From Amphiscolops sp. MND2022 (Eukaryota): a stretch of DNA of 64,000 bases. Location: contig OZ076416.1 in the NCBI GenBank assembly GCA_964187785.1, positions 54,188,001 through 54,252,000 on the forward strand, read 5' to 3'. A program made the translations under genes and the position numbers. Every line of letters begins with the position of its first letter. Positions within the stretch are counted from its first letter, which is position 1. Shown in pieces: positions 11,966-62,137 of this stretch. The notes beneath the pieces are model-generated. The model was not told the origin of the DNA. It saw only the letters and a list, made by a program, of their open reading frames with translations, and searched no databases.

Positions 11966-12583
11966 CTAAAGGTACCTATATTCACCTAAACAGCATAGTT
12001 TTTTCATGATGTGATAATCCTCTATTAAGTCTGCGTCAGATTCTTCGTCTGAGCGTATTGTTACATCTATATCCGATTCAGCTCGAAACATAGGCTTAGC
12101 AGGATGTCTCAAGTCTTTCATTTTAGAAGCTCTTAGAGGATGATCTTCATTTTCTGAGTCTGAATTTTCGTTTAAAGATGCGTGAACTCCTATAGACTTA
12201 TCTCTGGATCCCGACGGCTGTGTATTTTGTGTTTCATTTGTTTCCGATCTTGGATTTGTGATTGTAGATTCATTTTTGTTAGTTTTGATTTCTTTTAAGA
12301 TCGCTTCAAACTTGCTATCGATTTCTTCTCTCATTTTCCCTATTCTGTCGTTGTTTCTTTTCTCCATTTCTTGTGTCCAAACTTGAATCTCATTACTGAT
12401 TAGACTGGGTTCAGTTAATTGATTTTCCAAGATGTTAGGACCTAAATTTTCTTGATCAACTAAGTTAGAATTAGTTAAAGTCGTATTACCTGGGTTTGGA
12501 GTCTCTACATTCTCCTCTCTGCTTGGAGAAGGAGTTTCCAACCTTCTAGACCTTCTACTTCTCTTGTTTCCCATTCTGCTCAA
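11966..12583 (-). pseudogene. Truncated gag N-terminus encoded by the 3' LTR, running into flanking DNA
   Basis: Matches the first 191 codons of the gag frame to ...LIEDYH (one I/N difference), then diverges exactly at the LTR boundary. Confidence 0.9.
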
Positions 12584-13495
12584 GTGAAAATGTATTTCGG
12601 TTGCTGGGGAAGAATTTCAATTATCTTTCGGTATCTCAAATCCAAAGAAGGATCAATATAGTCAAGAGAAAAGTTTCGCAAAAGACAGAAAGGTTTACAG
12701 CAACTGTTTTGCACAAGGTAGAATTGATGAATGACTGATTCCCAACACTAGAAACTCCAGAAAATTAAAAGCATGACACCCCTTTTTATCGCAATCATCA
12801 TCAGAAAAATATAAAAATAGAATTTCATCATCATGACATCAGGTTATATATATCTCAGTTACATGACTTTCAGAAGAATAAACAGGACCCTAGAAAGCCT
12901 GGAAACAGCACAAAATGACGTATGAAGTTGTGTTAGTGGTTGGAATTCTCAATACATTGAAATGATATAATGAATGAACAATTAAAGCGAAAAACGTACA
13001 GTAACGAGTATACGCTACTTCTCGAACCGCGTAATGCCGCATAGTAAAAAGTGCATAGTGACGAGTATACATTATGCTTTAATCCGTAGGATGCCGCATA
13101 ATCCAATTACGAAAGACGCATACTTGCGAGTAGTCAACATATCTCAAAACGCATAATGACGTATAGTCATTAGCACATATGATCATCTGATGACGTCATA
13201 TCTTAAAAGCAATATCAAATGGAAGCCAATTAGTCATTCAATGTGATTTTTGGGTATAAATCTCTAAGTTTTGGCTACGTATGACTCTCCTATCGCTCGC
13301 AAACAACTTCATTTATGAAAAGCATCATTAAAAATATTTGCATGACTATGGCAAATTAACATAAAGTTTTGCAAGGTGTTTGTTCAAGTTCTTCAAAGTC
13401 TATTTACGATGATTTCTGGGTGTTGATATTGTCGCTGCTCGCATTCATCTCTCATTGCTGCACCACGGGTCCAGTACAGCTGTATGGCTGGAACA
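12010..13495 (-). repeat. 3' LTR (1486 bp)
   Basis: Direct repeat of 26411-27898; by eye 3 substitutions and one 2-bp indel. Confidence 0.97.
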
Positions 13496-14510
13496 GTCCC
13501 GCTCTTTTGAAGATGAATAGGGCAGCTTCAAAACCATCTATGAACGCTCTAGAGCGGACTCCACGGTCTCTAACGGTTTCACCGTCGTAAGCTGTAGCTG
13601 CGAGATATTCTCCAAGGGTCTCCAACGCTATCTGGTCGTAAGTTTTGTTGCAATACTCGCATATTCCGGCCACATTAGGCATGACTGTTGGGAACAGCCT
13701 ACAGTTGTCTCTTTCATTGATTGGCATGTATAGCACGTTAGTACTGTGTGCTACAGCAAAGGGAAATCCGACTTGTACCATTGGATGTATTGGGACTGGT
13801 ACCCTAGATAGTATGTCCGGAACTCCACGTGGAGGAAGTTGAACCACTGAGGGGGTTGTGTTTGACACAGGTGCCCTCTGGATCTCATTGTAATTGGGTA
13901 GGATTAGCACACTCGCTTGACCCTCATCTTGGCCTGCATTCTGTGTGATGTTTTGCCCATTGTTTACACTCCTGTCCCAATGGTGAAAATCTGAGGAATC
14001 GGGATGATGGTTTGGTGGGTAGGTTGGGATTATTTGACTCGCGGCGTCAGACTGGTGTTCAGCATTTCTTGGGGTAGGTAAGATTGCTGCAGCCGGACGA
14101 CCATAGCTATTCAACCTGATATTAATATCAGGGTTTGGATTGCTTGAGGGTTCATTTTCCAGTTCCAGATCGCTATCAATAAATGAAGGGAGCGATAACG
14201 GAGTTGACGGCAGATCTTCTTCAACTAAGTCCATTAGTTCCCTTTCAATTCTCGTTCCTCGGACGTCTATTGTATCCTGAGTAGACATTTCGTTTTCTCC
14301 CGTGGGGAACAATAATGCTGTGGTAGCCCCCATAAATGCAGTCATGGAGTCTTCTTCTGTCGTATTCACCCTGAACCTGTCCAGCAATTGAGGAACATTT
14401 CCAGGTTCGACGATGAATTCGCTATCTGAATTGCTTGAAATATCGATAACGTCGGGTGACAGAGGCGAGTACAGGGTATCTTCTTCTATGGCAAATTGCA
14501 AGTTATTCAT
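13452..14510 (-). CDS. Accessory ORF3 (352 aa), sense to gag-pol: acidic/P/S/N/Q-rich N-terminus, C-terminal CxxC-containing segment; function unknown
   Basis: Uninterrupted ATG-initiated ORF; CRLFPTVMPNVAGICEYCNKTY motif; last 14 codons plus the stop lie in the 3' LTR; no signal peptide or TM segment seen. Confidence 0.8.
   Translation of the reverse strand: MNNLQFAIEEDTLYSPLSPDVIDISSNSDSEFIVEPGNVPQLLDRFRVNTTEEDSMTAFMGATTALLFPTGENEMSTQDTIDVRGTRIERELMDLVEEDLPSTPLSLPSFIDSDLELENEPSSNPNPDINIRLNSYGRPAAAILPTPRNAEHQSDAASQIIPTYPPNHHPDSSDFHHWDRSVNNGQNITQNAGQDEGQASVLILPNYNEIQRAPVSNTTPSVVQLPPRGVPDILSRVPVPIHPMVQVGFPFAVAHSTNVLYMPINERDNCRLFPTVMPNVAGICEYCNKTYDQIALETLGEYLAATAYDGETVRDRGVRSRAFIDGFEAALFIFKRAGLFQPYSCTGPVVQQ
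13496..13508 (-). promoter_or_regulatory. Polypurine tract
   Basis: AAAAGAGCGGGAC immediately upstream of the 3' LTR TGTTCC on the minus strand. Confidence 0.8.
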
Positions 14511-15329
14511 CTTGTGGATTCTCGAGAAGTTTCAATTTGGAATATTATTTGCAAGTTTGAAAATCTGTGTTTTCAGACGACTGATTTGTGAGTTTGTGGA
14601 GACCAAATGGTGTCGGTTATTTCGCTTTCTTCTTTCCAAGGCAAGGAAAACCCGCGAAAAAATTGCTTGTCATGGTCTGATCTCCCAAATCCCCTTATAA
14701 GGGTTTCTTTCAGGCTTCTGATCATGAGACACGTGGATGATATTTCGTAAACAAATTCCTTTTTAGGTGTTCCAGTTTTCTACATCACCTTATTTCCTCT
14801 CATCAGCGTCTTCCACACCGTTTCATCGGAGTTTTAAATGATACGTAAACAAATTTAACCTAACATCAAAGTAGAAAGAACGAAAATGTGATTTACAAGA
14901 TGTGCCTAGTTTCTGAAACTAAAATATATTTATCTGGAATTGCATGACTGGAAGCAAAGAAGATACAAATCATTAAAAAAGGGGTTCATATTAGTCAAAT
15001 CATGTTCTAAAAAAGCTTTAGCTGTAAGAAGCGTTTTGTTTTGTTTTAGTCCCGCACTTGAAAAGTGCGTATGGTTCTGTTTTTCCATATGATTTCAATG
15101 GAACAAGTGAAATTTAGGATAAAATTACATAAAAGAGTTTCTGACTGAGATATCACATTGATGTCCCAATGGCACCTTAAATCTCGTTCGAAAAAAGCAA
15201 TGAATGCATACATTCTATGCATATTAATAACATCAGAAGTTCATTTGTGATAATTAACACGTAGTTTCTTTAGTTTGTTACGTAATAATGATTCATTCAC
15301 ACAATATTAACATTGGTTCATCTCTGTGG

Positions 15330-15500
15330 ACACATACAGCGAGAACCGCAGGGTGGCGAGTATACGTCATTGCTCAATCCGTATAATGCCGCATAGTATT
15401 CAGCTGGCAATTCCGCGTACTGCCGCATACTCATCACTGCAATTCCGCATACTGCCGTATGCTCGTCTCCAGTCGATCCGCATACTGCCGCATGCTCTCG
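15330..15500. repeat. Degenerate CCGCATA-motif tandem repeats in the internal spacer
   Basis: Repeated ccgcatactgccg / ccgcatagt; similar to LTR sequence near 13000-13170. Confidence 0.65.
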
Positions 15501-15902
15501 CTTACTAAATCGTTCCAATCAGCATAGAAACGATGAGAATGAATACACATTGCTTTCAGATGTCATAATGAGTCAATCAATCACGCTGGCAGACGTAATT
15601 GACGTATGGACAGCCAATCAAATTGCAGTATTCTCCACGCATATTTGCGCTCAATCATTTCATTTGCTCTTTTGCCTTCTTTTGTTACATTAACGCCACG
15701 CCTTTATTGCATTTTATCAATTGAATTGTTTCATTTGTCAGAATAGTCTTACTAGTCAAAATTGGTTTTGTTGCAGATCAAACTCCTCATCTTTCCTCTT
15801 TAGCTCTTAGTTTTCTTCGTCGCTTTCAGTGCAGACCCACGCCCTTATCTTCATTCTGATTCCCTTTAACAAGATCTTTCTTCATTTGCAAATTTATATG
15901 AG

Positions 15903-18900
15903 ATGGACCCAACTCAGAAGACAGAATTATCTGGGAAACGGAGGACGCGAAAAGACCAAGTTCCCCATTTTCGAGGCGGAGCTAGAGATTACAATCCTTC
16001 CTTCCGATACAACACAGGTTGGTTCGATTTGTTTCTCAGAATTTAACTCGATAAGTTTCATTCAGAGTGAATTTTTGATCCCTGTCAAGCTGGCCAGGCT
16101 TGCAGCTGAAAGTGATCTAGATATTCCGACCAGATTCAGAATTTTTTCGAAACGTTTCCGTTTCTAATTTCTAAGTGACTTCCGCTTTCTCTATTCATTT
16201 CCTGTCCCCGCGTCCGGATTCAGTCAATTTTTAACTTCCGTCACTTGACATAGTTTTTATTTTTTCTTGTTTATCAACAAGGTAGCGTGTTTTAGATGAA
16301 CCAGAAGCTCCAGAAACTTCTCCAGCTAAATCGCCTGCCAAATTTTATACTTCGTTGGTGTCCACTTCTCCAGCCACACCACGAGTCCGTCCCGGGACAA
16401 AAACACCCAGTACCCCAGGTCTTCAAATCGACGAGGGGATAAGAGTAGAGGTTGATCGCAGCTCAATTATTCCTGAGGCCTCTCCTCCAAAATCAACAAG
16501 TTCCCGATCTCGTTCAGGAAAGGATTCTTCAAACTCAAGGCCCACAAGTCCACAACCACCCACGACTCCTACCCGCAACATGGATAGTTCGGTCCATATG
16601 TTAGACCACGAGGTATACAGGGGGTTTGAGATGCCAGGTACTTCACGAGTTGAGCCGACCCACTTTGATCAGTTTCTTGGGCAGGCTGCAGATGAGATTC
16701 CCAATCAAATCATTTCCTCGACTGTTGAACACTGTAATTCGCAAGACATCGACCTAGTAGAGGTCCCCCATGAAGCTGTTGCAGCAGGTAGTTACCCCGA
16801 CACGTCTCAACCCAGCCTTAGCATTACGAGGCAAGAGATTCTCACTTTGACGAGTGTCTTGGAGCGTATCCCCCAAACTTACCTGGTAGGGGAAGAGGTT
16901 GATCCCAACCGGTCTTTGTCTCTCATGATTGTAGACGAAAACGCCTTACCCCCATTGATAGCTTCTTCAAGCCAAGATGACACTCCTGCGCAGGCTACCT
17001 CCGAAGTAGCACAAGTTGTTGTCAATACCGGGAATCCCATAGCAAGTGGGAAAAGACGTAGGCCCAAGTATTCCCTTACAGGGTCAATGTTCAGGAAACA
17101 CCCTGTATTGAAATTTTCAGCCACTGGCCCCTTGGACCGGGACGACACCTTACAAGTGGTGGTGTAGGGTGTGTAAGACTGAACTCTCTTTGATTAGTCG
17201 GGGAAGCCTCGATTAATGTCCCATTATCGTTCAGAGTCGCACCTAGTCAAAGAACATCGCATCCGTATGGAGGTGCCTGGAATGTCTTTATTTGACAAGG
17301 ACGAAAAAGAACTGCTTGGACTTTCTTTGCAAGAGGCCAAAAAGAAAGCTAAGGATACGTATCCCATTGCACCACAATTGGATCCTTGCCGCCCATTAGT
17401 CGGACAAGACTCAGTGCCTGACCAGCGCAGCCAGTAGTCCCACTGCCAAAATTCTTTCTCAAATTACCGTTCTTGAATTTGGACTTCGCCATGGAGGGCA
17501 CATAAACAGTCTCACTGGCATTTACGATGAACTTGTGAGGTTCAATTCTATGAGTCACTTGAGTACCCAGAATTGGAGCCAGGAGCGTCTTTTCGTTAGT
17601 ATTTGTCATTGTTGCGTATTTCTTTTTCTTTCGACTTTGGGGCATACTTAATTGATGTTCTTGTTTTAGGGGATAGTGGTACACCTGTTCCGTGAACTGA
17701 TGGCCTACTGTGTGACAATGGTTAATTCTTCGGGATTTTACTCATTAGCATTACAACACACTCCTACAGCCTCTTTCATAATCTTGAATTTCTGGTCGGG
17801 CAATGTGTTCCACAGAGTCTGCCTTGGTAGCACTCCACGAGGGATGTTACTCCCCCATAGGATCCTAAATTTCATTTCATCCTTCTTGTGTCTTTTTGAA
17901 ACCTTCCCGACATGTGTCGCTGTTATCAATGTTGGAGACAAATTGGGCGACTGCTTATCTACCTGTCTCCCTGGAAAACAACAGCCTGCTAACATTCGAA
18001 CCTTCAACCCAGAGGAGTTTGAGCGAAGCCTTTCAGTCCCCACCGCCCAAATCATAGAGCGACATGATTTCCGGACTATCCTAGATTTCTTGTTAATGAA
18101 ATTGCGCACTGCTCTTGACATGGATTGGCTGAAAAAACTACCCCTTCTTCACAAGGTAGACCTCATATTGTTTCTTTCAAGTAATCGTATAGAGTAGTTA
18201 TCCCATTCCATTTCCTTTAGAGTGTAATTCGCTTGGAGTATTCTCTCGAGGAAGCATCTTCCATCATCGAAATCTTGTCAAACAGTTGGGACCATGTCAA
18301 GGACCATTTGAACAGAGTCGCCCGGCTTCCGGTCTACCGATTCCATATGCGAGAGGTTATACCACATCCCAAAATTCTTTCTATTGAATCAGGCTCCGGG
18401 TATTCCGGTTCTCCCTTTTCATCATGATCTTTTCGTTTCAGCCAAACACTTTGGATGAGTGTTTTCGACTCGACACTGCCTACTTGGCACGACTCTTCGT
18501 TATAAGATATGTCATCGATCACTGTTAGTTGTTTTCTTTGTTGCTATCAACATAACATTTTGACAGGTTTCGGTATTCTACCTCCTTTTCCATACAGTAC
18601 CTCTTGTACTTATCCCCCTGATCTGTATAGTACTTCTCACACACATGTGTTGCTTGAACACTCATGTAAATGTCCGATTATGCTAATTCCGCACAATGAC
18701 GTATGATCAGTACGTCTTGTTTCGTATAGTGACGCATAGTTATCCCCACTACTAGTGGTGGTAAAATATATACTTAATCATGCTAATTCCGCATAGTGAC
18801 GTATAGTCACCACAGCTTGTTCCGCATAGTGACGCATAGTCGCCACAGCTTGTTCCGCATAGTGACGCATAGTCGCCACAGATTGTTCCGCTCGATCACG

Positions 18901-20165
18901 TATAAGTTCAAATCTTTCGAGGTGAGAACTTATATCACTAATGCATTTCTGCACGTGACGCGTATTGTAACTTTTACCAAAAGTTAACATTCACTTGTTC
19001 TGATTTATTCTTTTATACTAATGGTAACAAACATCATTTTGTTTGGTATGTTTTAGACAATTCTGCATTCTCTGAAGTCCAGTCAAATGTCGAGGGCGGC
19101 TTCCGATTATTCAATCAATTTTCGGTATTCATTTATAGCCAGCTCCAGAGTATCTTGCCTGATGCTACACTAGGCAGCGTTTCTGATTGGGATGGGTTCC
19201 TACAGTTGGATTTGAACCAGCCAGAACTCCCTTTCAAATCAGCAGATGAGTATGTCCTAAATGAGGATTTTCACCGACTTGTTGTCGCAAGCAAACTGCC
19301 GCGCCCAAGCAAATTTGTAGACCAGTCCATCGCGTTCGGGAAGGCCTTGTGTAAACAATTGATGGAACATGAGATCGTCAATTCTGGTCTCGTTAAGGGT
19401 TTGTCTGCCTTCGATCCTGCGGTAATTCTTGATGGACCCGAAAGCCACTACATCACTGCCATAGAGAAATTGTCTAGTCATTTCGTTTCTATGAAGCTGA
19501 TTACTTCGAGTGACAAAGCGAAGGTGACAAGTCAATACCGTTCCTTTGCCATTAAACTGCGGTCCGAAGCAATCCCGGCTTATAGTGATTGGATTCACTT
19601 CCTTTCAGCTCATCACGAGATCCAATGTCGACCTGAGTTGTTTCGTCTATATAAGCTCTCCTGTCTATGTTTGCCCCCTCTTGTAGACATACCTCCGGAA
19701 TTCACTGTCCCAATGCCCAAGTTAGCTGTTGATGCGGAGATGTTTGATTCATGCCTTAGAAGTCTCCAAATGTCGTATTCAACAGTTCCTCACGTGTCCA
19801 GTTTATACAAGGGTCCGAAGTCCGTGTGCAGAGTCTTCCGCCTGTTGGGTCGTGGATCCGATCTACTAGTGGACAAAAAGTTTTCCGTCTGGAACTTCTT
19901 AAAAGGAAGTGGTCCTCGTCGGACTGCAATGTTGGGAAAAATGGAGGCTGAATACCGAAAGGCAGTTCTACATTACGACAGGCCAGTGGTCACTTCAAAC
20001 ACTACTACTCCCAGTGTTAGCCGGGCAAGTAGCACACACAGCACTCCATCTCCTGATTTGTCTTTGGGCAGAGTTAATGTGTCGCTTAGTCGCTGTGCTA
20101 ATGTATCCCCAGAGGGTACTGTGAAGAAAAACAATACCAAAATTGTGAAGGGCAAGAAAAACTAG
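15903..20165 (+). CDS. Antisense spliced gene (~1070 aa): S/P-rich N-terminus, BED-like zinc finger, inactive hAT-transposase-like domain. Exons 15903-16017 (tentative), 16296-17594, 17670-18155, 18221-18355, 18442-18523, 19057-20165. Three frameshifts in exon 2.
   Basis: Five GT-AG introns whose phases all join the ORF fragments in frame; YKWWCRVCKTELSL...MSHYRSESH finger; SSGFYSLAL...RVCLG and PELFRLYKLSCLCLP resemble hAT/DUF4371-type transposase segments (recalled similarity, not searched). Confidence 0.75.
18787..18890. repeat. 33-bp tandem repeat (~3 copies) in intron 5 of the antisense gene
   Basis: ttccgcatagtgacgcatagtcgccacagcttg starting at 18787, 18820 and 18853. Confidence 0.9.
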
Positions 20166-20388
20166 TCCTTTGTTGTTGTTTGTATCTTCTTAAACTGTCT
20201 TTATTACTTCTTTGTTTGTATAATCCTTTGATGTTTGGTTGTATTTATTCTAGCATTATTTATTCTGTTAGCAGAAAAAGAGAAGTCCAAAAACTATGCG
20301 TTATAACGCATGACTAAGAAGGAAGATAAAAAGATTTCTCTGCAAGTGTTTTCTAGTATGTGATTGAGATGAAGTTTAGAAGTTGTTT

Positions 20389-23300
20389 TTAATATCTGTA
20401 TGTGTCAGAGTAGTTTGGGTTGGGATTAGGGCGTAAGTTGTACTTTTCACCACGGGTATTTATGGGTTCTTCTTGCGATGGGGTATTTTGGGAATTTTCT
20501 GGGGTTTTCTGAATATCATTGTCTGTTGAAGTATTTGTATCTTTTTGGGTTTTTTGGGTATTATTATCATTTTCTTCATTTACTTGTTGTGGAGTTTCGT
20601 CATCATGATTTTCATGGTTTTGATCTTGTTCAGTGGTCTGTTCCACTGGGCTCCCCCCACTATTTTTTGAAATTTCGAGGGAGGGAGGGTGGTTATTTTC
20701 GGGTGATGTAATGGGCAGGTATTCAATATCTTCGATATTTTGTGAGTACTCTGGAGGGTTGTCCTCAAACGGGTTGGGGCCGAAATTTGTATTCCAAGAT
20801 TGAGCATATAGATCATCTTGCGTTATCGGCAGTTGGTCATCTTTCTGCCAATCAGTTTCTCGTACGAAAATGTCTGCGAGGGGAGCTTGGGGGGTAAACT
20901 TCCTCAAGCGAATTCGATGCAGAAGTTGCGTCTTGTTAGTTCCTAAGCGTCTAACTATGTAGTTATTGTTAGGGAGGACTTTTTCAACTTTATATGGACC
21001 TTGCCATCTAAATTCTCGAAAAGGTATCTTTGTTGCCTGGGTATCCGCCTTCGGGTTTAGGACGTAACAATAATCCGTTGTTTCAAGTGGTGATGCCTTT
21101 GCTTTCCTATCATAATATGCTTTGTATTTGAGATAGGATTGCATTATGTTCTTTTTGGTTTGGTCAAGCAGTATTTTCATTCTTCTTTGTACTTCCTCTG
21201 CTACATCTGTATGTGGTAGGTATTTTGGGTTAGGGTTGTATCCAAGCTTGTAATCGAGTATGTTATGGGGTATTCGCCCATGAAATACTCGTGAAGGCTC
21301 ACAACCCAGTGTTGCATGGTAAGTAGTGTTGTGGTTTAAGACTGCTAGCGGGAGAAACCTATGCCAATTGTTTCGAAATTCCCCCGTGGCAGCTTTAAGA
21401 TGCGTTTTCACTGATGCATGAGTTCTCTCTAGGATTCCAATGGTTTGAGCGTGTTTCATCGTTGCATGCTTGAGCTCAATTCCTAGAACTGCGGCTACTT
21501 CATGTGTGACTTGGGCATTAAATTGGGTGCCCAAATCCGTAATGATTGTGGTTGGTAGATATGTGTGTTTGCAGAGGATATCCATTATTACTCGGGCTAC
21601 AGCAGAAGCTGTAATGCGTGTTACTGGGTATGCAAACAAATACCTTGAAAAAACGTCTATCGCTGTGATTATGTGGTCATAGCCTCCACTTGGAGGGAGA
21701 TTGGGTAGGATGTCCATTTGAAGAATGTCTTCTGGACCAAGGTCCCATTCTGGACAGTTGAGAAGTTCAGTTCTGAGAAGATCATTGTTGATCCGTTTGG
21801 TTTGTATGCAAGTTTGGCAATTGGTGACCCATTTTTTGATGTATTTAGCGATACATGAGTAATAGTACTTTTGTCGGGCTTCTTGAATCATCTTCGTAAT
21901 ACCTGGATGGTTTGAGTTGTGACCATGTAGGGCTTGAAGAAATTCTTCTAGAAGTTGAGCCGGAAGTAGTATCTGGTAATGTGAGGTGGTCCCCGTGTCG
22001 GTATAGTACCTGCGGGTGAGAACTTCTTGTTTGATTTCAATTCTAGCAATATTTTGAAGATAATGGTGGTATCTATAGTCAGATGCCAACTCGTGTTCAT
22101 CAAAAGGATGTCCTTCTATTTTTGCTCGTAAATTTCTGAGTACAATATCGTTGTTTTGTTCTAAACGAATCTTCGCATTGTCTCGGAAGTGACCTTCCGA
22201 ACAAGTGTTTAAACCAGAAGTAGGTTTATGGAATTGTTGGAGTTCGGTTATGTTATTTTCTGGTTCATTGTGTGTCTCGTTTTGAGCTTGGTCTCGGATG
22301 TTCTGCTTCTCTTGCCATAATTGGTTTTCATCTAGTTCATCATCGGGGAGGATGTAAATCTGCTCTTCTTCTACGATCCCTGATGATTGTATGTTGACTT
22401 CAATTGCTTTAGTGTTGATGTCATTTCGAATTGTCAGTTCAAGTTTTTCAACTGGATTGACTTCGGCGCGTGAGAGGAAGTCAGCTGCAGTGTTCATTGA
22501 TCCCGCAACGTGGGCGATTACAAAATTATATTGTAAAACATAATCGCATGCATTCCAAAGTGCCGGTGGGATAAGTTTTGCTTGAAAAAATCGGGTTACT
22601 GATCTGTTATCGGTGAACACAATTACAGGGAATGTGCTTCCCCACATGAGGTGTCCAAATTCACCAAAGGCAAAATATATGGAAAGGAATTCCTTGGCAT
22701 ATATAGACATTTTTGTTTGTGTCGGGTTAAAAGTTTTGGAACCAAATGCTATGGGAGCGTATGTTTTGCGTTTTGATTGCAGTTTTTGGTTCGGGTCGTC
22801 TTCTATCATAATGGCATATCCCGCAGCAGTAAAGCTGGCATCGGACATGATTATGAGCTGTTTGTCTTTGAGGGGTTGTTTCAATGCCAATTGGCATGAA
22901 TTTTCGAGGAGTTTATTGAGGTTGATGAAATCCTCTACTAAGTTTGTTGGCACATAGAATTTGGATGTTTCCTTGAGAAGTTTAAAGAACGGAGACAGCC
23001 GTTCTGAGAGTCGTGGAATGTAGTTGCGATAGTAGTTTAGGAAACCTATATATCGCTGGAGGGCTTTTTTGGATTTAGGAAATCTGAGTTTAGACAGAAA
23101 GTTTTTGACTTTTTCTGCTTGCGGGGCGACTCCTTCAGGTGTGATTGTGCGTCCCAAGAAGTCAACTTGTTTGACGCCAAAGTGGCATTTGGACATCGTA
23201 AGTTTGAGGCCAGCATTTCTGATGCATTCGAACACTGTTCTGATGTTGGCGCATAGTTGCTGGGCATTATTTGCAGCGATGCCAATGTCATCCACGTATT

Positions 23301-25296
23301 GGGCGCACTGGTCTGCTTTGATTGCTTTATCTAGGTACTCTCTCATGAAACTAGAAAATGCTGAGAGAGATCTGCTTAGGCCTTGCGCTAGTCGCCTATA
23401 AGCGAAGGTTCGGCTGGCAAAGTTAAAAGCGAGCATTTGTATGGATTGGTAGTCCGCCATTTGTAGGCAGTGGTAAGCCTGTGAGCAGTCCAATTTGCAG
23501 AAAAGCTTTTTCCCTGCCATATGTTGCGCTGCGTCGGACAATGTGCTTACCGGGTGGTTGTTATTTGTATAGTCTTCGGTTATCAAATTGTTGATTTTCC
23601 TGAGGTCAACAAGAAGTCTAAGGCGTCCATTTGGTTTGCGTTGAGCAAAAATTGGACTAGCATATTTGGAGAAGGGTAATGTTGTTATGATGCCGTATTT
23701 GTGTAGAAGGGCAAGTTCTACTGTAATGTCGTCTTTAAGGTCGATTGGAGTTGGCAGACTTTGGCTGTACGCTGGTCTGTCATCATTGGGTGTGAGTTTT
23801 ACCTTGAATTCCCGATTTGTGCCAATGTCGAAGCGATGACGAGCAAAAATGTCATGGAAGTCAATGAGAATTTCTTCAATATGCTGACGTTCTGCTTGGC
23901 TGAGTGTCGTATCGGACCAGTCAAAATTGGAAAGGAATGTTTTACGCGATTCTTCATTGTCTTGGGGGTTCAACTTTTCAAGTCGTTGCAACTCGAGTAG
24001 TTCGTCATATATTCGCTGTTGAATTGGGGTGTAGGTTGTAGGATCGCCTGGCTCCTCTGGAGTTGGGAACCAGTAGGTTTCTTGTTCTTGATTCTGTGGA
24101 GGAACTTTCAAGAGTTCATGTAAGTAGATTTCCGATGTATCGTCATGTTGCATCATGAACGATAGTATGGTTGGGTCTACTGGTTGTATGTATTTGATTT
24201 GTTCTGGCGTCAGTATTTTGAAGTCCGCCAGGTGAGTGTCAAGGGGAATTGTGTATGGTAGTTCAGAAAAATTAATGATTTGGTACCCGATAGCATTATT
24301 GTTAACCGTGCTGAGTGACGATGTGATGAAGATGCTATCGTGTTGTTCAAATTGTTGGGATGGGGTTACAACTCCTGTTGCATCATGGTCCATGAGGTGA
24401 GGCATTCTGCTGGCTATGGCGAGGGTTTCGCCAGGTTGTAGAGTATAAGTGTTTTCTGCTAACAGTGGAGTTGCCTGACGCATAGTTATTTGCGTATCAG
24501 GTTTAAGTTGCATTGAAAGATATGGAAATGTCAGGATGCCTTGAGTGACATCGAAGATGGCATTGTTCCGACGTAGGAAACAAAGGCCAATTAATGGGTT
24601 CGGTAAATTTTTCATGATGATGAAATTTTCTCTTAGCATAAAGTCAGCCACTTCGAATTCTAGTAAGACAGTGCCAATTGGGACTTCTAATTGTCCGTTG
24701 GCCACCATGATTTGAAAATTTGGCGGTGGGCCAGTTTCTCGGATTGCATCATTTGCTAACAATTTAATTTTGTTGAGATCCTGTTCGGAAATTGCACTCG
24801 TTAGGGCTCCTGTGTCTATGAGTCCGTCGAGAGTTAATTTTTCGAAGTCCATAGGCATGTAGTACATGTGGCGTTTACGCTTTAGTGTAAGAGAGGTTGA
24901 TATTGGAAAGTATGATAGGTTTCGTTCCTTATCGAACTGTATATGTTCGGTGAGGTCATCATCAAGAAGAGGTTGCTTTTGTTCGTTGCAAGAAGAAATC
25001 GGTGGTTGTGGTTGTATCGTGGTGGTTTTATGTTGGGTTTGTGATGTTGGGTCGATTTGGGGTTGGTTTTGTGGTGTGGGTTGTTCGAAGTAGTTATCTG
25101 GTGCATCTCTCAAGAGTTCATAGTATTGATCTGGAGAGGTGTTCGGAGTTTCAGATGGTTCAGGAGTTGGAGGAGTAGAGTCAGGTTCAGTAGTTAGTCG
25201 TTTGAGTTGAATGTCTATGGTTTCCACTTGATGCTGCCAGTCATCTTGTGGTTTTATTGCGGCGTTGTTGTTAAGGCGTGGCGTTTCTAGTTTAAA
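20389..25296 (-). CDS. pol: Gypsy Pol polyprotein (protease, RT, RNase H, integrase), expressed by -1 frameshift
   Basis: LIDTGA; YVDDI; SDASF and FTDN; HHCC (HGHNSNH...CQTC) plus D-D-E (QMDIL, ITDLG, ILERTH); GPY motif; frame open from the slippery site to the stop at 20389. Confidence 0.97.
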   Translation of the reverse strand, partial: FKLETPRLNNNAAIKPQDDWQHQVETIDIQLKRLTTEPDSTPPTPEPSETPNTSPDQYYELLRDAPDNYFEQPTPQNQPQIDPTSQTQHKTTTIQPQPPISSCNEQKQPLLDDDLTEHIQFDKERNLSYFPISTSLTLKRKRHMYYMPMDFEKLTLDGLIDTGALTSAISEQDLNKIKLLANDAIRETGPPPNFQIMVANGQLEVPIGTVLLEFEVADFMLRENFIIMKNLPNPLIGLCFLRRNNAIFDVTQGILTFPYLSMQLKPDTQITMRQATPLLAENTYTLQPGETLAIASRMPHLMDHDATGVVTPSQQFEQHDSIFITSSLSTVNNNAIGYQIINFSELPYTIPLDTHLADFKILTPEQIKYIQPVDPTILSFMMQHDDTSEIYLHELLKVPPQNQEQETYWFPTPEEPGDPTTYTPIQQRIYDELLELQRLEKLNPQDNEESRKTFLSNFDWSDTTLSQAERQHIEEILIDFHDIFARHRFDIGTNREFKVKLTPNDDRPAYSQSLPTPIDLKDDITVELALLHKYGIITTLPFSKYASPIFAQRKPNGRLRLLVDLRKINNLITEDYTNNNHPVSTLSDAAQHMAGKKLFCKLDCSQAYHCLQMADYQSIQMLAFNFASRTFAYRRLAQGLSRSLSAFSSFMREYLDKAIKADQCAQYVDDIGIAANNAQQLCANIRTVFECIRNAGLKLTMSKCHFGVKQVDFLGRTITPEGVAPQAEKVKNFLSKLRFPKSKKALQRYIGFLNYYRNYIPRLSERLSPFFKLLKETSKFYVPTNLVEDFINLNKLLENSCQLALKQPLKDKQLIIMSDASFTAAGYAIMIEDDPNQKLQSKRKTYAPIAFGSKTFNPTQTKMSIYAKEFLSIYFAFGEFGHLMWGSTFPVIVFTDNRSVTRFFQAKLIPPALWNACDYVLQYNFVIAHVAGSMNTAADFLSRAEVNPVEKLELTIRNDINTKAIEVNIQSSGIVEEEQIYILPDDELDENQLWQEKQNIRDQAQNETHNEPENNITELQQFHKPTSGLNTCSEGHFRDNAKIRLEQNNDIVLRNLRAKIEGHPFDEHELASDYRYHHYLQNIARIEIKQEVLTRRYYTDTGTTSHYQILLPAQLLEEFLQALHGHNSNHPGITKMIQEARQKYYYSCIAKYIKKWVTNCQTCIQTKRINNDLLRTELLNCPEWDLGPEDILQMDILPNLPPSGGYDHIITAIDVFSRYLFAYPVTRITASAVARVIMDILCKHTYLPTTIITDLGTQFNAQVTHEVAAVLGIELKHATMKHAQTIGILERTHASVKTHLKAATGEFRNNWHRFLPLAVLNHNTTYHATLGCEPSRVFHGRIPHNILDYKLGYNPNPKYLPHTDVAEEVQRRMKILLDQTKKNIMQSYLKYKAYYDRKAKASPLETTDYCYVLNPKADTQATKIPFREFRWQGPYKVEKVLPNNNYIVRRLGTNKTQLLHRIRLRKFTPQAPLADIFVRETDWQKDDQLPITQDDLYAQSWNTNFGPNPFEDNPPEYSQNIEDIEYLPITSPENNHPPSLEISKNSGGSPVEQTTEQDQNHENHDDETPQQVNEENDNNTQKTQKDTNTSTDNDIQKTPENSQNTPSQEEPINTRGEKYNLRPNPNPNYSDTYRY

Positions 25297-26984
25297 TCCT
25301 TCGATGAGGATTGTTGGAGTCGTTCCATTTTGGGTTTGATGTGCTTTTTGGCTTGTTTGTAGTTCTCAATAATCTTCTTCTGGGCTTCTGTGAGGTTCCA
25401 TTTAGGTGGGCGATTTTCCATGTTTTCGCCAAAATAGCAATTTTCTTCAGTGTGTCCTGGTGTGTTACAATTTTCACATTTGTCCGCTTCCTGATCTTCC
25501 TGAAGTTTGCGTCGCTTGGCTAGTTTTGGGCAATCGTTCATCATATGGCCCTCTTCTTTGCAATAACGACATTGGGTGTCTTTAAGGGTCTTGTTTGGGA
25601 CTGATTTTGGCGTTTGTGTTTTGAGTTTATCAGGTTGTTTTTTGTTGGTTTTTTCTGTCTTTTGTTCTTTTTTGGTTGCGGTCATCTGTGTTTTGACCAT
25701 GGATTCATCGGATTCCAATCCGTTTAGTTCCATCTCTCGTTCGAGATGTTTGACGATTTGGTTATAGGTGCCATTTTCAAGGTATGCTTGATTAATGGAC
25801 TTTTTGAGGTGGGGGGGGGGCATCTTAGCATAAAGTAAATTCTCTATCATTTGATGCGCATTAACCCCAAACGCTTTTTTGGCACTTTCTTCGAGTTCTT
25901 CGAGGAAATCTGGGAGTTTTTGGTTTTCGGGGTCAAAGATGAGTCTATTGAATCTGTGTTTGGCAGATGCGCTGGACTCCGGTTTTACGTATTTTCGTCG
26001 GAAAACTTTGAGAATGTCTTCTAATGTTGTTGTGGGCGTTCTTTGTATGTTTTTGAACGTTTTCAGTGCCAGGCCTCTCAGGTGGGCGTCGAAATGATTG
26101 ATTTTCATGTCTTCTGTAAGATTCGGTTGCATTCTGAGTGTTGTGTGGAACAAGTCCTCAAAATACTCAAATTTTTCATTTTTCTCGTTTTTTCCATTAA
26201 ATGTGAGTGTGTTTTTTGGGTGGAAGAATGTTTGTGATTCGTTTTTGTTTGCTAATTTTTCTATTGCCAGGGCAATTTGATTGACTGGGTCAAGGGGTGT
26301 TGCAGATGAAGTTGTTGTGTTCTGGGCTGCGTGGGATCCTGTTGTGTCGTTTAAAGACTGTGGGTTTTGCGAACTCTGTCTATTGAGTTGTCGGTTAGCT
26401 CCTGTCACCATGTGATAATCCTCTATTAAGTCTGCGTCAGATTCTTCGTCTGAGCGTATTGTTACATCTATATCCGATTCAGCTCGAAACATAGGCTTAG
26501 CAGGATGTCTCAAGTCTTTCATTTTAGAAGCTCTTAGAGGATGATCTTCATTTTCTGAGTCTGAATTTTCGTTTAAAGATGCGTGAACTCCTATAGACTT
26601 ATCTCTGGATCCCGACGGCTGAGTATTTTGTGTTTCATTTGTTTCCGATCTTGGATTTGTGATTGTAGATTCATTTTTGTTAGTTTTGATTTCTTTTAAG
26701 ATCGCTTCAAACTTGCTATCGATTTCTTCTCTCATTTTCCCTATTCTGTCGTTGTTTCTTTTCTCCATTTCTTGTGTCCAAACTTGAATCTCATTACTGA
26801 TTAGACTGGGTTCAGTTAATTGATTTTCCAAGTTGTTAGGACCTAAATTTTCTTGATCAACTAAGTTAGAATTAGTTAAAGTCGTATTACCTGGGTTTGG
26901 AGTCTCTACATTCTCCTCTCTGCTTGGAGAAGGAGTTTCCAACCTTCTAGACCTTCTACTTCTCTTGTTTCCCATTCTGCTCAA
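25287..26984 (-). CDS. gag: Gag (565-codon open frame; first ATG at 26975)
   Basis: Capsid-like region (FEDLFHTTLRM...LRGLALKTF); two CCHC knuckles CRYCKEEGHMMNDC and CENCNTPGHTEENC. Confidence 0.93.
   Translation of the reverse strand: MSRMGNKRSRRSRRLETPSPSREENVETPNPGNTTLTNSNLVDQENLGPNNLENQLTEPSLISNEIQVWTQEMEKRNNDRIGKMREEIDSKFEAILKEIKTNKNESTITNPRSETNETQNTQPSGSRDKSIGVHASLNENSDSENEDHPLRASKMKDLRHPAKPMFRAESDIDVTIRSDEESDADLIEDYHMVTGANRQLNRQSSQNPQSLNDTTGSHAAQNTTTSSATPLDPVNQIALAIEKLANKNESQTFFHPKNTLTFNGKNEKNEKFEYFEDLFHTTLRMQPNLTEDMKINHFDAHLRGLALKTFKNIQRTPTTTLEDILKVFRRKYVKPESSASAKHRFNRLIFDPENQKLPDFLEELEESAKKAFGVNAHQMIENLLYAKMPPPHLKKSINQAYLENGTYNQIVKHLEREMELNGLESDESMVKTQMTATKKEQKTEKTNKKQPDKLKTQTPKSVPNKTLKDTQCRYCKEEGHMMNDCPKLAKRRKLQEDQEADKCENCNTPGHTEENCYFGENMENRPPKWNLTEAQKKIIENYKQAKKHIKPKMERLQQSSSKDLN
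25290..25296 (-). promoter_or_regulatory. -1 programmed ribosomal frameshift heptamer U_UUA_AAC
   Basis: GAT TTA AAC TAG ends gag; the -1 frame TTT AAA CTA GAA is open into pol. Confidence 0.85.
26393..26410 (-). promoter_or_regulatory. Primer-binding site (tRNA-Leu-like)
   Basis: TGGTGACAGGAGCT directly follows the LTR-terminal CA; resembles the tRNA-Leu PBS TGGTGTCAGGAG. Confidence 0.75.
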
Positions 26985-27898
26985 GTGAAAATGTATTTCG
27001 GTTGCTGGGGAAGAATTTCAATTATCTTTCGGTATCTCAAATCCAAAGAAGGATCAATATAGTCAAGAGAAAAGTTTCGCAAAAGACAGAAAGGTTTACA
27101 GCAACTGTTTTGCACAAGGTAGAATTGATGAATGACTGATTCCCAACACTAGAAACTCCAGAAAATTAAAAGCATGACACCCCTTTTTATCGCAATCATC
27201 ATCAGAAAAATATAAAAATAGAATTTCATCATCATGACATCAGGTTATATATATCTCAGTTACATGACTTTCAGAAGAATAAACAGGACCCTAGAAGGCC
27301 TGGAAACAGCACAAAATGACGTATGAAGTTGTGTTAGTGGTTGGAATTCTCAATACATTGAAATGATATAATGAATGAACAATTAAAGCGAAAAACGTAC
27401 AGTAACGAGTATACGCTACTTCTCGAACCGCGTAATGCCGCATAGTAAAAAGTGCATAGTGACGAGTATACATTATGCTTTAATCCGTAGGATGCCGCAT
27501 AATCCAATTACGAAAGACGCATACTTGCGAGTAGTCAACATATCTCAAAACGCATAATGACGTATAGTCATTAGCACATATGATCATCTGATGACGTCAT
27601 ATCTTAAAAGCAATATCAAATGGAAGCCAATTAGTCATTCAATGTGATTTTTGGGTATAAATCTCTAAGTTTTGGCTACGTATGACTCTCCTATCGCTCG
27701 CAAACAACTTCATTTATGAAAAGCATCATTAAAAATATTTGCATGACTATGGCAAATTAACAAATAAAGTTTTGCAAGGTGTTTGTTCAAGTTCTTCAAA
27801 GTCTATTTACGATGATTTCTGGGTGTTGATATTGTCGCTGCTCGCATTCATCTCTCATTGCTGCACCACGGGTCCAGTACAGCTGTATGGCTGGAACA
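26411..27898 (-). repeat. 5' LTR (1488 bp)
   Basis: Begins TGTTCCAGCC, ends TTATCACA; near-identical to 12010-13495. Confidence 0.97.
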
Positions 27899-27966
27899 CA
27901 TGATTTACCTAAATCATCAAATTTTTGGAACATTACCTGAATTTACCTAAATTTACCTAAAGTAGC

Positions 27967-29279: not shown

Positions 29280-29860
29280 TATGTGAAATTTTGGGGAAAA
29301 ATCGATAATGTTATACGAGAAATGAAAACGTTATATCCGAACTTTCAAAATGATACATCCGAACTTTTAAAACGTGATATCCGAACTTTGAAAACGTTAC
29401 ATCCAAACTTTGAAAACTTTACATCCGAACTTTGAAACGTCATATCCGTATTTTGTAACGTTACAGCTGAACTTTGAAACGTTAATCCGAACTTTGAAAC
29501 GTTATATCAACTTTGAAAACGTTACATCTGAACTCTGAAAACGTTACATCCGAACTTTGAAACATTATATCCGAATTTTGAAACGCTATATCCGAACTCT
29601 GAAAACGTTTCATCCGAACTTTGAAACGTTATATTCGAACTTTGAAAACGTTACATCCGAACTTTGAAAACGTTACATCCGAACTTTGAAACGTTGTATT
29701 CGAACTTTGAAAACGTTACATCCGAACTCTGAAAACGTTACATCCGAACTTTGAAAACGTTACATCCGAACTCTGAAAACGTTACCTCCGAACTCTGAAA
29801 ACGTTATATTTGAACTTTGAAAACGTTACATCCAAACGAAAATCTGGGTTATCCTCTCTT
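29280..29860 (+). repeat. 21-22-bp minisatellite (gaaaacgttacatccgaacttt) with conserved flanks
   Basis: More than 20 units; array and flanks match 57915-58250 in inverted orientation. Confidence 0.9.
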
Positions 29861-31799: not shown

Positions 31800-32143
31800 C
31801 AGAGTTTTGACATCGCTTATTTTTTCCGGTAATTGCTAAACCGCTAATTTCAAAATCGCTATTTCACTGAAACACTTTTTCGACTAACTATTAAATGTTT
31901 GAATTCAAGATTGTTTTAAAAATAGAACGATAACTTAATTGAATTTTTACAAGAAAAAAAACTAGAATTTTTATACTGTGTGGACTTTACAGATGAAGAG
32001 TTGGAATGTTTCGAAATTCATTTTAAAACTCAGTGTATCTTCCGAAGAAATTTTGAATTTGGACAATATATTAATTGCTGCTAATTTGAATCGCTAATAT
32101 AATCGCTGCGAAAATTCTGCTGAACCGCGGTGTCAAAACTCTC
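31800..32143. mobile_element. hAT-type MITE (344 bp) in a host intron
   Basis: TIR cagagttttgaca / tgtcaaaactctc; 8-bp TSD CCCACAGC at 31792-31799 and 32144-32151. Confidence 0.85.
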
Positions 32144-32176
32144 CCCACAGCGCTTAAAAGTAACTCCCACTTTCAG

Positions 32177-34619
32177 GTAACCGTCACCTTGGGTGCCAAA
32201 AAGCGACCTCAAGAACCCAACTACCCGAGAGAACAAAAAGCTAAGAAGAGTGTTTCTAAAAAGAGTTCTGTTCAGAAGAACCGGCAAGCAGAAGTGACAG
32301 CTGCTGAAGTCTCACAGGAACCGGTCACCGATACACCTGCCAGGAAAAAATGCCCTAAATGCAAGAAAAAGTTCACGAACATTTCCAACCATTTGAGAAA
32401 GTCGACTGCATGCAGATCAGTGCTGACAGAACCGTCTTTTTTGAAGGAACGAAAATGCAGATTCTGTCACGAAGCTGGATTTCGCTTTCAAACTGTGCGG
32501 GACACGAAACGGCATTACAGAAAACTTCATGACTCAACTTGCTCTGAGTGTTTCGAGAAATTTCACAATGCCCGAGATAGAGAGGAACACGAAATCGATG
32601 TGCACCGTATTCTGTATTCATTAGACAGCGATTCTGAATATGAAAATACCGATGCATCATGCGTGGACTCTCAAACGTCCTCGTCGAAAAACAAGGCAGC
32701 CAAAAAAGTATCGACCACAGCCACTTCTAGTTCTTCCAACAGACCTCCGTTGCCCAAGGTCAAAATATCATCGAAATCTTCTCCGTCGAAAACTGCCTCA
32801 GAGCCAAAAGAGTATACACTGACCTTCTTAAACACCTTGCCATCCTCCCTGGAAAGTCTTGTAGAGACCACAACAATCCCATCAACAAAGTCACCAGAGA
32901 CCTCATCTTCTTTTGAAACACCCGTGCCTGTACAACCCAAATTTCCTGTACGTCTCTGTAAAGCAGACAAAAGTGCTCCATCTTTCGACAAATGTGAAAG
33001 CCTTCAGTATAGTGCTTCAAATTTGGAAGCGGAATTAGCCAAAGAATCAGCCCGAATTCTTCCCTTGTTTTTTACCCAGCCTGCCAAAAATACATGTTCG
33101 TCAATGGTCTACGAGTCAAATGCTTCAAGAAAATGTTCTGTTGAGCCCCCGGTTGTTAATCAAACTGCTGGTTCCGAAACAATTTTTGAAGAGGCGGAAG
33201 AAATACCCGAGACCAAGCCTCAAAGTGCTCCTTATGAAACAGTTAAGTTTTTGAAGGCAAAATATAATAAACGTTCTCTGGTTGTCTTCAAACCTCCTCC
33301 TGAAGCGACACTGAATTCCCCGATACCCCCTCCTGCAAATGAGGAAGTTTCAGATATGCCACCTGAAGTACCTGTTCAGGTTAATTGGAGGCAAATATCT
33401 CCGGGCGAACAGAGGTTCATCATCAAGGAGAATGCTCCACCTACAATCATCAACCCACAACCTCAACCCCAGCCTAAAATTCCAAATTCTGTAAAATTGA
33501 ACCCTAATTTCATCAATTTCTTGTCAACATACAATCCGAAGTCTGAAGCTCAAAAGAAAGCAGCTACTGGAGGAAAATCTGGGTCTTCACCAAAGACGTC
33601 GAAAGAGGCTGAAGATGAAACTTCGACGCCAAAACAACCAAGTTTCTCCACTCCTCCGACTGACTTTGTGACAATTCAAGAACATCAGGATTTAAATCAG
33701 AAACCTTCCTCGGAAGCATCGAAGTCTATCGTCATGAAAGCTAGGAAAAGTGTTACGAGTAAAAGAAAAAGGAAACAAGAGGAACAAGATAAACCGCTCA
33801 AAGACAAACCACAAGTTTCTAATGAGAAGTTAACAAAGAGGTCACTCACCTCGATTTTGGAAGACGAAAAAAACCAGCACTCGACTGTCACCGAGCCGAG
33901 TCCTGTAACCCAAAAGTTAGAAGCTGTGATAAATCCAGAAAGCTCTGTAAACTCGAACCCTGCTACGGAAAAAACGGAAATTCCTCTCCTCGAAATGCTT
34001 CTTGAGGTGTCTTCCAAAACCAGAGCTGATGCTGCCACGACTCAATTCCACGTGCCATACCCCAGAGAGTTCCCGGCTGCGCCATCTGGGAAAAGCAAGC
34101 CGAGTGCTTCTACTGACAAGGAATCTGATCCACTTTCTGAGCCAAGTTCAAGTTCTTCGACCGAAAAGGAGCCTGAAAGCAGCAGTAGCGCTGTTAACTA
34201 TTTCTTTCTGAAGAACAATGTTGAGAAAGAGAAGGAGAGTAAAAAAGTGACCCAGGTAGAGGATTCTTCGAAAAAATTGGACAAATCAATAGCTGGCCCT
34301 CAGTTGGAAACATCTCAATCTCAACGAACAGTCTCAATGGAGACACCCGAGGATCCCAGGTTGAAAAAAACGAAGCCACCACAAGTTGTCGATAAACCTT
34401 CAGTGTCTATTGCTTCTACGTCACATACCAACAACCGAGGAGTGCGCATTGAGCTCTCGAAGCCATTTGAGGTTTGCAGAGTGAAAAAAATTCTGACGGA
34501 AATTAGACGCAGTTTTGAGAAGCAGGAGCCAAAGAAACATGGAAAGCGCAAACAATTTGAGTACAACAAGGCTCTGAGACAAGTACTTGATGAACATAGA
34601 GCTTTGTCAGCCGTCCAAA
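32177..34619 (+). CDS. Host C2H2 zinc-finger protein, large exon (S/P/K-rich disordered region)
   Basis: tttcag|GTA...CAAA|gtaagt; fingers CPKC...NHLRKSTAC, CRFC...RHYRKLH, CSEC...EHEIDVH. Confidence 0.85.
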
Positions 34620-35533
34620 GTAAGTTCAGAACTTTTTTTCAAATGCTGATCCCCTGTTTTATTTTATTCAAGAAGCTTGCTTTCTTCATTCGTTTTTGTT
34701 TTTTTTCTTAAATTGTCATTCATTTATTATTTTTCATCGTAATGTGATCCCATGATACATGACCTCAAATATCTTCATAATTTCTAATTTACTTATATTC
34801 TTTGACCGATGGCATGACAGTTGACACCTCATTTATAGAGTTGACATTTCATTATTAAAGCTGACCTTTCGTTAGGAAAGTAATCTTTATAATACTTTCA
34901 TTAGAAAAGTTATTTACTTGATAATACTTTGGTGATACTTAATCATCGTGGTTGACACTTCATTATTGATGTAATTACTGTAGATTTATAATCCGAGATA
35001 ACTTAAGCTATCAACTCATCAGTTTCTCTCAGTAAAGCACTTTATAGAAAGCAGCACAGTAACTTTCGTCTGCCTACCTGAGGCGTATTGTAAAACATCT
35101 CGTTACCGGCAGCTTCTTGAGATGGTTTCTGAAAAAGGTTTCATTTGGCAAGAGCAGTGAAAGCGTTTGTTGATAAACCATGTGCTTCCATGCACGGTAC
35201 TTGTGAATTCCATGCATGGTACATGTGCATGGCTATGCTGTTTTTCGCATGAAATTGGATGCTCCATGAATTGCTTGTGCCTAATGATCTAAAAGCACAG
35301 GATTAAGATGTGTGGTTTTCTTATTATGCGAAGCTCAAAAACTTGAAACTGCTTGCTTTTTTCTAGTTTTTGAAGCTCTTTTTGAAAAAAGCGATTCCAT
35401 GCATGGAACATGGTCATTTACATGATCATGCATGGAAATGCAAAGATGTCAACACTGGAGTATTAAAAACAGGCTAGAATATTTGCGGATTCAGTGCACT
35501 GATGAAATCATGATAACATTTCTTATGTTTCAG

Positions 35534-35605: not shown

Positions 35606-35849
35606 GTGAGTACATAATTGAAATTATTTTTCCTTCGCATCAATTGAGCTGTTAAAAATTAGAGTTGTTATTGTTCTTTGTTCTTTTATAGAGCACATAA
35701 GAAGTCTAAGATTCTTAAGAGCAAAGTCGTCTAAGGTACCAAGTCAAACTAGCTAGCTATTTCTATTTTCAAGTATCGCTGAGATCTCAGTTAGTTCTTT
35801 CTCCTAAGGGAAGACTGTTCGTCAGAGCATATTCTATTTTCTCTAAGTA

Positions 35850-36023
35850 CAGTAGAATCCGCCTAATTCGTATCACTGGGGACCGAATAAAATAGTACGA
35901 ATAGTGAGAAATACGAATTAACCGGATGATATTACTTTGGTCTTCGCGAAATGGGGGTCTCAGATACATACGAATTAAACAAAGATCCGAATTATCCGGA
36001 TACGAATTAACCGGAGTTGACTG
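35850..36023. mobile_element. TA-flanked MITE (174 bp)
   Basis: TA-cagtagaatccgcctaattcg...cgaattaaccggagttgactg-TA; inverted copy at 50588-50761. Confidence 0.85.
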
Positions 36024-37211
36024 TAGATATATTCGTAACTGTTGATACAGATATATTCGAGTTGACTGTAGATGCGTTAATAATGAGGTTATCCCAAAAT
36101 GTTGATTAAGTATTAATGAAGTTATCTTCATGTGTCATCAGTTATTAATGAAGTTATCTTCGGGTGTCATCAATCTAATCAACTTCGAAATGAAGTGACA
36201 TCTGTCTTTAGAAAAGTGGGTGACTTTCAAAGTTAGATAAATATTTGAAAGTTCTTGAGGACATGCATCATGGCATCACACAATACCTTTGAATAACTTT
36301 GAAAGGGTAAAGGTTCAAAAATTTATGAATCTTCGAAACTATTCGTTGTCAAATTTACTCAACTTGATTCACTACATAGAACTACTTCAAAATTTAAATT
36401 TCCATGACTATTTTTTTCAGACTCCTACTCAAATTATTGCAACGCACTGAATCGACGCCGTGGAATTTACGATGGCTCCAATCTGCAGTCAACTAGTGGT
36501 TTGTAGACTACATTTCATGATCATTTTAGCTCTTATAACCAGTGAATTGACACCGGTACTTGTACTGGAAAGCATAAATTTTGTAATTTGCAATTGAATT
36601 CGATAATACCACTGTAACCCTGGCCAAAATCGGAAACAATCTTGGTGTTTTATGTGAAGGAAAGAAAAATTTTGTTTCAAAGTTTTTCGCAACTGTAATC
36701 GGCTGTCTTTGTTATTGAGTGTATCGGAGTAGTGTATAAACACAAATTAATTTGGTGTAAGTTTATTACAAAGCAAAAGATATTCACTATTTACGTTCAC
36801 TCGAATGATGGTGGTTGAAAATGGGACTCAGATTTCCATGCGTTAAAATTATGTCAAAATTTTGTTGAAATATGCGCTAAAAATAAAGGAATATGCCTTA
36901 AGTAAGCGTAAAAACAGTATTTTTACTCACAAAATTTTAAAATTCAAATTGATCAAAAGTTTTTGGTTTTCTTCATATACAGTCTCGTGCCAAAAGACAC
37001 ATGAAAGGTGTTTCAAGTTTTCAAGGGTAAGAGAAATTCTTTGTGGGGTTTGTGTCTGTCCCAGTTCTGAGAAAACTCATTCTATGTTGGCCAAACTCAT
37101 AGGTGCATATCGATAAACTGTAGTATCTAATGATGACACATCAGAACTGACTTGTTCGCTTTTCAGAACTTCAGCAAAATCTTCCAAAAAAATTTAGATC
37201 AGGATTTCGGA

Positions 37212-50560: not shown

Positions 50561-50587
50561 TTTCTTCTCTCTTGAAGTTCCCAAATA

Positions 50588-50761: not shown

Positions 50762-50878
50762 TATGTAAATGATACTGGACTTTACTATGTCGAATATCAA
50801 TTCTGTGACTGCTCCAAGCATCATTTGTGATTGATGGTGACTGTAGTTTGGGTTGTTCAAATTTCAGTTCCACTTCGG

Positions 50879-62119: not shown

Positions 62120-62137
62120 TGAACAAATGGAAAATTA

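Follow-up and report, generated by a model that had tools for sequence, protein, structure and literature searches.

A 64,000-nucleotide stretch of the Amphiscolops sp. MND2022 genome (contig OZ076416.1, positions 54,188,001 to 54,252,000; hereafter the window, whose numbering is used unless another contig is named) contains a Ty3/Gypsy retrotransposon with long terminal repeats (LTRs) that carries two additional genes between pol and its 3' LTR. One of them, open reading frame (ORF) A, runs in the sense of the element; the other, gene B, is antisense and has six predicted exons. Both genes recur across the element family and evolve under purifying selection. B alleles move between backbones that are almost identical, and the non-coding parts of the element contain arrays of one motif. 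The element is a real, previously unannotated variant of the LTR elements with accessory genes.

A family-wide cargo with exchangeable B alleles

The cargo, with ORF A and gene B placed head to head, fills the 6,893 nt that separate the pol stop from the 3' LTR. The host genome, of 1.07 Gb, contains Wnt genes and is hence that of an animal; copy counts in it are lower bounds from the best-scoring candidates. The cargo is matched end to end in at least 5 other copies (86-99%) and largely in at least 3 more, counts that leave out the window element and a twin at a contig edge (L001/L010). ORF A has at least 116 scored matches (49-100%) and B exon 6 at least 111 (62-100%), 95 of them without stops. 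A listed A match lies within 20 kb of 47 of these at least 111 B matches, compared with ~0.5 expected by chance, and all 47 pairs are head-to-head, with a spacing of 5.2-8.9 kb. No terminal inverted repeat (TIR) or 8-bp duplication was found bounding the cargo or gene B. A one-off nested insertion is ruled out by the presence of the cargo in other copies, the lack of a TIR or target-site duplication (TSD) and the fixed A-B arrangement. A preliminary description of this DNA had read the cargo as an accessory-gene module of an animal Gypsy lineage, and had proposed looking for copies lacking the region, for TIRs or a TSD of its own, and for selection across copies. This part of the reading is upheld: the module is present and collinear in other copies, at least 5 of them matching it end to end, it has no such ends, and both genes show purifying selection.

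Two observations concern individual copies. The twin (C2:63359245-63368023), possibly an assembly duplicate, is partial and 100% identical; it starts at a gap of Ns, with both ends and the last 51 nt missing. B exon 6 occurs twice, ~3.3-3.6 kb apart, at C6:9975782 and 9979065 and at C3:32526716 and 32530287, which suggests internal duplications.

Exchange of B alleles was seen by comparing seven elements, namely the window element and its six best gag-pol matches. Reverse transcriptase and integrase are 96-100% and ORF A 93-98% identical among them, while their B exon 6 sequences form four groups that lie 59-64% apart. Identity drops sharply at 15,704-15,740 and, in five of the six sisters, at 20,331-20,386; in the remaining sister the divergence sets in earlier, in the end of pol. 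The exchangeable cassette thus covers 15704..20386, with borders that vary with the allele compared. LTR pairs of the six sisters are 98-99.9% alike, five have 5-bp TSDs (the end of the sixth is not fully aligned), and one carries an internal deletion within B. Young LTR pairs together with divergent B groups indicate old B alleles on young backbones, for which template switching between co-packaged RNAs would be the simplest route.

The backbone has the parts of a Ty3/Gypsy element: paired TG...CA LTRs, a TSD, primer-binding site, polypurine tract, gag and pol. It occupies 12010-27898 on the minus strand (15,889 bp), which is also the strand of the LTRs, primer-binding site, polypurine tract, gag and pol. 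Only 3 substitutions and a single 2-nt indel separate the 5' LTR (26411..27898; 1,488 nt, its position 648 marked by a TATA-like box) from the 3' LTR (12010..13495; 1,486 nt), and the TSD CATGA stands at 12005..12009 on the left and 27899..27903 on the right. The gag gene (25287..26975; 562 aa) encodes a capsid-like region and a zinc knuckle, with zf-CCHC above the Pfam cut-off and Ty3_capsid and Retrotrans_gag below it. It starts at LTR position 924, so that its first 188 codons lie in the 5' LTR and its frame crosses the putative primer-binding site (26397..26410; TGG...). The LTR-coded part is constrained, with a ratio of non-synonymous to synonymous substitution rates (dN/dS) of 0.13-0.26 in all ten comparisons. 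No tRNA gene was found in the window. The polypurine tract (13496..13508) lies within the ORF A frame. Pol (20389..25365) is open over 1,658 codons from stop to stop, with Pfam domains in the order protease, reverse transcriptase, RNase H, integrase. It lacks a start of its own and overlaps gag in the -1 frame at UUUAAAC (25296-25290), a heptamer found at this overlap in 7/7 elements examined (the window element and six sisters); pol is therefore probably expressed through a -1 frameshift at this site. The recount agrees with the preliminary description on the near-identical LTRs, the intact TSD, the intact gag and pol, and the ~6.9 kb with two divergent genes beyond pol.

The gag start is repeated in the 3' LTR, where a 202-aa frame (11966-12574, minus strand) runs into flanking DNA; solo LTRs would likewise carry this frame.

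Gene B, ORF A and the motif arrays

Gene B (15903..20165, plus strand) comprises ~1,076 codons in six predicted exons with consistent phases (15903-16017, 16296-17594, 17670-18155, 18221-18355, 18442-18523 and 19057-20165). The model was built from conserved frames and GT-AG sites, and its splicing is a prediction. Ten close copies retain the splice dinucleotides at 98 of 100 sites, and three alleles ~65% identical in protein retain them at 24/24. P0074, an outside relative, has introns at matching places; in the relatives P0137 and P0146 exon 5 appears by eye to be continuous with exon 6, without an intron. Eleven of 12 unsaturated pairs give dN/dS of 0.05-0.29, the remaining pair 0.75; between alleles synonymous sites are saturated and dN is 0.16-0.31. 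Exon 2 of the window copy contains three small frameshifting deletions (near 17.14, 17.21 and 17.42 kb) that are not found in 8 other close copies and may be real or assembly errors. Non-coding blocks in intron 1 (16086..16230), conserved across all aligned B alleles and including the palindrome GAAACGTTTC, are candidate promoter or enhancer elements. An 89-aa frame (15898-16167, plus strand), open in several close copies, overlaps exon 1 in another phase and extends into intron 1.

The B protein consists of a disordered N-part, a putative C2H2-type finger and a predicted hAT-like helical C-part. Its CxxC...H...H finger is invariant in 6/6 aligned copies and is the best-conserved part of the protein (72-79% between alleles). 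B is probably descended from a hAT DNA transposase that has lost catalysis and retained the zinc finger and helical body. In the stretch of 77 B members corresponding to the catalytic Asp-Asp-Glu (DDE) site (register set by eye), no Glu is conserved; that Glu is invariant in host hATs. At the sequence level, no hAT homology was detected in B with PF05699, PF14291 or host hAT frames, and a B profile was negative against nine host hAT frames, comparisons uninformative on the RNase-H-like core. Pfam searches over the cargo pieces, 10 B pieces of other copies and 30 B relatives gave nothing above cut-off (for the finger only sub-threshold C2H2 matches and no zf-BED), and PDB sequence searches with the cargo proteins gave nothing below E 0.1. 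Searches for DUF4371 and WRKY matched nowhere, controls included, and are hence uninformative. A first structure model from 9 sequences was poor (predicted local distance difference test score, pLDDT, 43) and its fold search meaningless; with a better model, whose fold does not include the exon 3 part, Hermes was absent from the Foldseek list, also when the matches were re-inspected. A search for longer B relatives found none, which is weak evidence. Relatives of exon 6 in public assemblies reach down to ~20% identity in 255 clusters, which marks the B family as old and unannotated. The host has at least 150 scored hAT copies, and several of its hAT families (L042-L050) have long open transposase frames.

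ORF A (13452..14510, minus strand; 352 aa) ends 44 nt into the 3' LTR, which encodes its last 14 codons and stop. Its acidic N-terminus contains what we take to be a SUMO-interacting motif (SIM), present in this SIM-like form in 43 of 54 full-length relatives and in 1.5% of shuffles, and is followed by a conserved C-terminal domain. Cysteines C284, C287 and C345 are invariant, the last being coded in the LTR. ORF A has 110 relatives, and 22 of the 23 pairs for which it is computable give dN/dS of 0.13-0.37. A TATA-like box lies ~185 nt upstream. An env identity is ruled out, as ORF A has no transmembrane stretch (maximal 19-residue hydropathy 1.14) and no match in Pfam (26 members searched) or PDB.

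The motif CCGCATAGTGACGYATA is repeated in both LTRs, in the A-B spacer and in B intron 5. Its cores number 20 in the element, against 1 in the remaining window and 0.83 in shuffles. Each LTR has four copies, located in the 5' LTR within the first half; the spacer array (15327..15610, plus strand) has 6 cores and the intron 5 array (18677..18891, plus strand) 5. The latter is retained in three divergent B alleles, and the motif is identical in these and in the B allele of the window, showing no variation with allele. Genome-wide the motif has 928 exact matches and its reversed control none, an enrichment that is partly circular, as the motif was derived from the window element. Among the first 100 matches listed, 39 gaps are shorter than 300 bp, and every one of them is a multiple of 32-33 bp. 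The listing covers part of contig C1, where 11 of 13 B matches have a motif within 1.5 kb; three more C1 matches to B lie beyond that part.

Other features of the window include an 873-codon open frame with C2H2-like fingers by eye (32090-34711, plus strand), which is probably an exon of a host gene and lies ~4 kb away from the 5' LTR. A broken, presumably LINE-like element with endonuclease and reverse transcriptase pieces lies at 59516-63018 (minus strand), and a decayed pol remnant, which we take to be Copia-like, at 46464-47909 (minus strand). Two 22-bp tandem arrays (29323-29837 and 57984-58204) are in opposite orientations 28 kb apart, and an inverted pair (35848-36025 and 50586-50763; 178 nt, 93% complementary) is separated by 14.6 kb.

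Possible functions of the module

Nuclear-looking proteins, a finger-bearing transposase-like gene and phased arrays in all non-coding parts, the LTR among them, fit a trans-acting self-regulatory module, and the tentatively preferred reading, at somewhat under even chances, is a Ty3/Gypsy lineage carrying its own nuclear regulatory module. B would very probably be transcribed from integrated copies, from its own promoter on the opposite strand, and then spliced. Antisense introns stay in genomic RNA and are not spliced out, so that those of B, lying backwards in it, would persist through retrotransposition. ORF A may be produced from a subgenomic or internally promoted RNA and act through its SIM-like motif. 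On a speculative view that could well be wrong, B would bind the arrays with 32-33-bp spacing that lie in the LTR, in the spacer and within its own intron, and would act in trans to maintain transcription of cognate elements or protect them against silencing, while ORF A would engage SUMO-dependent chromatin machinery.

The chief rival of a self-regulatory module is an enhancer model in which the arrays serve a host transcription factor and ORF A, B or both act as Tax/HBZ-like co-regulators without contacting the motif themselves. Several observations favour it: the motif stays constant across B alleles 35-40% apart, many cores contain TGACG, and ORF A is acidic and without an evident DNA-binding domain. 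However, it would leave unaccounted for both the retention of the finger as the best-conserved part of B and the presence of an array in B's own intron in every allele examined, and the model is considered rather unlikely. A post-transcriptional role appears improbable, whether in exporting or protecting the 15-kb genomic RNA in the manner of Rev/CERV, in nuclear entry, or in tethering integration to particular chromatin. Export of Cer1 genomic RNA requires a spliced accessory protein (PMC10309623, in the text available), plant antisense ORFs have been proposed to aid nuclear steps (PMC7264820, likewise), and both cargo proteins have basic or SIM-like nuclear features; yet helically phased direct repeats in the LTR fit DNA binding better, and the TSDs of six copies share no common sequence.

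B might also be a repressor or competition factor directed against its own family, rival elements or hAT transposons, with alleles kept by frequency-dependent conflict. Deeply diverged old alleles persisting on young backbones, the many host hAT copies and the capacity of antisense transcription itself to silence (PMC7264820, available text) would suit this. Nevertheless, B has no sequence tie to the host hAT families tested, and selection within alleles is purifying rather than diversifying, which leaves such a role little chance. That B is a functionless passenger, either a nested DNA transposon or a captured host gene, is highly improbable and already contradicted: although B is frameshifted in the window copy and partly deleted in L005, no TIR or 8-bp TSD surrounds it, its position and orientation are fixed in 47/47 listed pairs, and purifying selection and conserved introns extend across alleles with saturated synonymous sites.

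Relation to known systems and significance

In plant Retand and Grande elements the region from pol to the 3' LTR holds antisense ORFs along with tandem repeats, and their origin and function are described as unknown (PMC11963269, PMC7264820, available parts). The present element resembles Retand, Grande and RIRE2 (TRP28, gene23) in its long pol-3' LTR region (2.9-6.6 kb in theirs), conserved antisense ORF and tandem repeats, and B is comparable with the plant antisense ORF, which has its own promoter and a probable nuclear DNA-binding role (same sources). The word "intron" occurs 0 times in the main texts of both papers. Unlike the plant elements, the present one has an animal host, a gene with six predicted exons and a predicted hAT-like fold, another gene in sense orientation that overlaps the LTR, and allele cassettes; Pfam found no TRP28 (PF04195) in the cargo, and this and the animal host speak against a place in plant Retand/Tat.

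VANC of VANDAL elements binds arrayed motifs located in introns, between genes and in terminal regions (PMC5735166, available text), and TnpA of Spm derives from a transposase, a regulator that arose by loss of catalysis (10.64898/2026.08.24.746577, whose main text, as available, never mentions LTR or retrotransposon). As in these systems, an intron-containing accessory gene is combined with short motifs arrayed in non-coding regions (PMC5735166). However, theirs are plant DNA transposons; here the motif is constant across alleles and regulatory activity is a prediction. Domesticated hATs differ from B in being kept by the host, whereas B is kept by a retrotransposon in hundreds of mobile copies and has no sequence-level match. 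ZBED, GTF2IRD2 and FAM200 presumably are further comparison types. DAYSLEEPER combines a zinc finger with a hAT body and lacks DDE residues, TIRs and TSD (PMC8616336, available text), a make-up that B probably shares. PMC12477816 and PMC8616336 (parts available) cover DNA-transposon accessory genes, mobile domains of plants and DAYSLEEPER.

Among animal elements, planarian Burro, bdelloid ORF3s, Oikopleura Tor and Cer1 CERV also have extra non-env or internally promoted genes (PMC6431247, PMC4402516, PMC5408684, PMC10309623), none of them, by the available descriptions, antisense with multiple introns or transposase-derived; the present element has no env. The preliminary reading is supported only in part: the family-wide module stands, two qualifications fall, and the introns, likely hAT origin, allele swapping and arrays had been overlooked. 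"Giant" does not suit 15.9 kb, as a review sets the bar at a 20-kb internal coding region and lists Burro at >30 kb (PMC6431247, available text), and the view that animal Gypsy elements carry at most env is not supported, in view of bdelloid ORF3 enzymes (PMC5408684) and the spliced CERV of Cer1 (PMC10309623), both as described in the text available. An account of an LTR-rich invertebrate genome gives no element structures in its available text (PMC9911081). The literature covered holds no animal LTR element that carries a transposase-like gene in antisense with several introns, and none with allele cassettes; Repbase, subscription journals and supplements, outside that scope, may describe the family.

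Complex retroviruses (HTLV, HIV nef) have an ORF extending into U3 and 21-bp LTR repeats. Their antisense accessory gene, like B, is located after pol and ahead of the 3' LTR (HTLV Tax/HBZ; PMC11963269, available text); the present element is set apart by the absence of env and by its Gypsy-type pol.

The broadest proposal is that an animal retrotransposon lineage has domesticated a hAT transposase along with its introns, which would now work in trans as a sequence-specific factor against silencing, directed at the element's own arrays, together with a SUMO-engaging cofactor, and that ancient alleles are kept as cassettes in an arms race with host silencing. Such a cross-class capture, an animal counterpart of VANC, is on balance somewhat unlikely. 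The finding bears on what allows LTR elements to become so numerous in some animal genomes although they are subject to silencing, and on antisense accessory ORFs in LTR elements, whose function is stated to be unknown (PMC7264820, available text). The family provides a defined protein and a defined candidate target of 17 bp, along with naturally B-defective copies and four or more natural alleles that share one backbone, which makes the question of regulation directly testable. If B is indeed hAT-derived, a DNA transposase would have been domesticated by a retrotransposon and not by the host.
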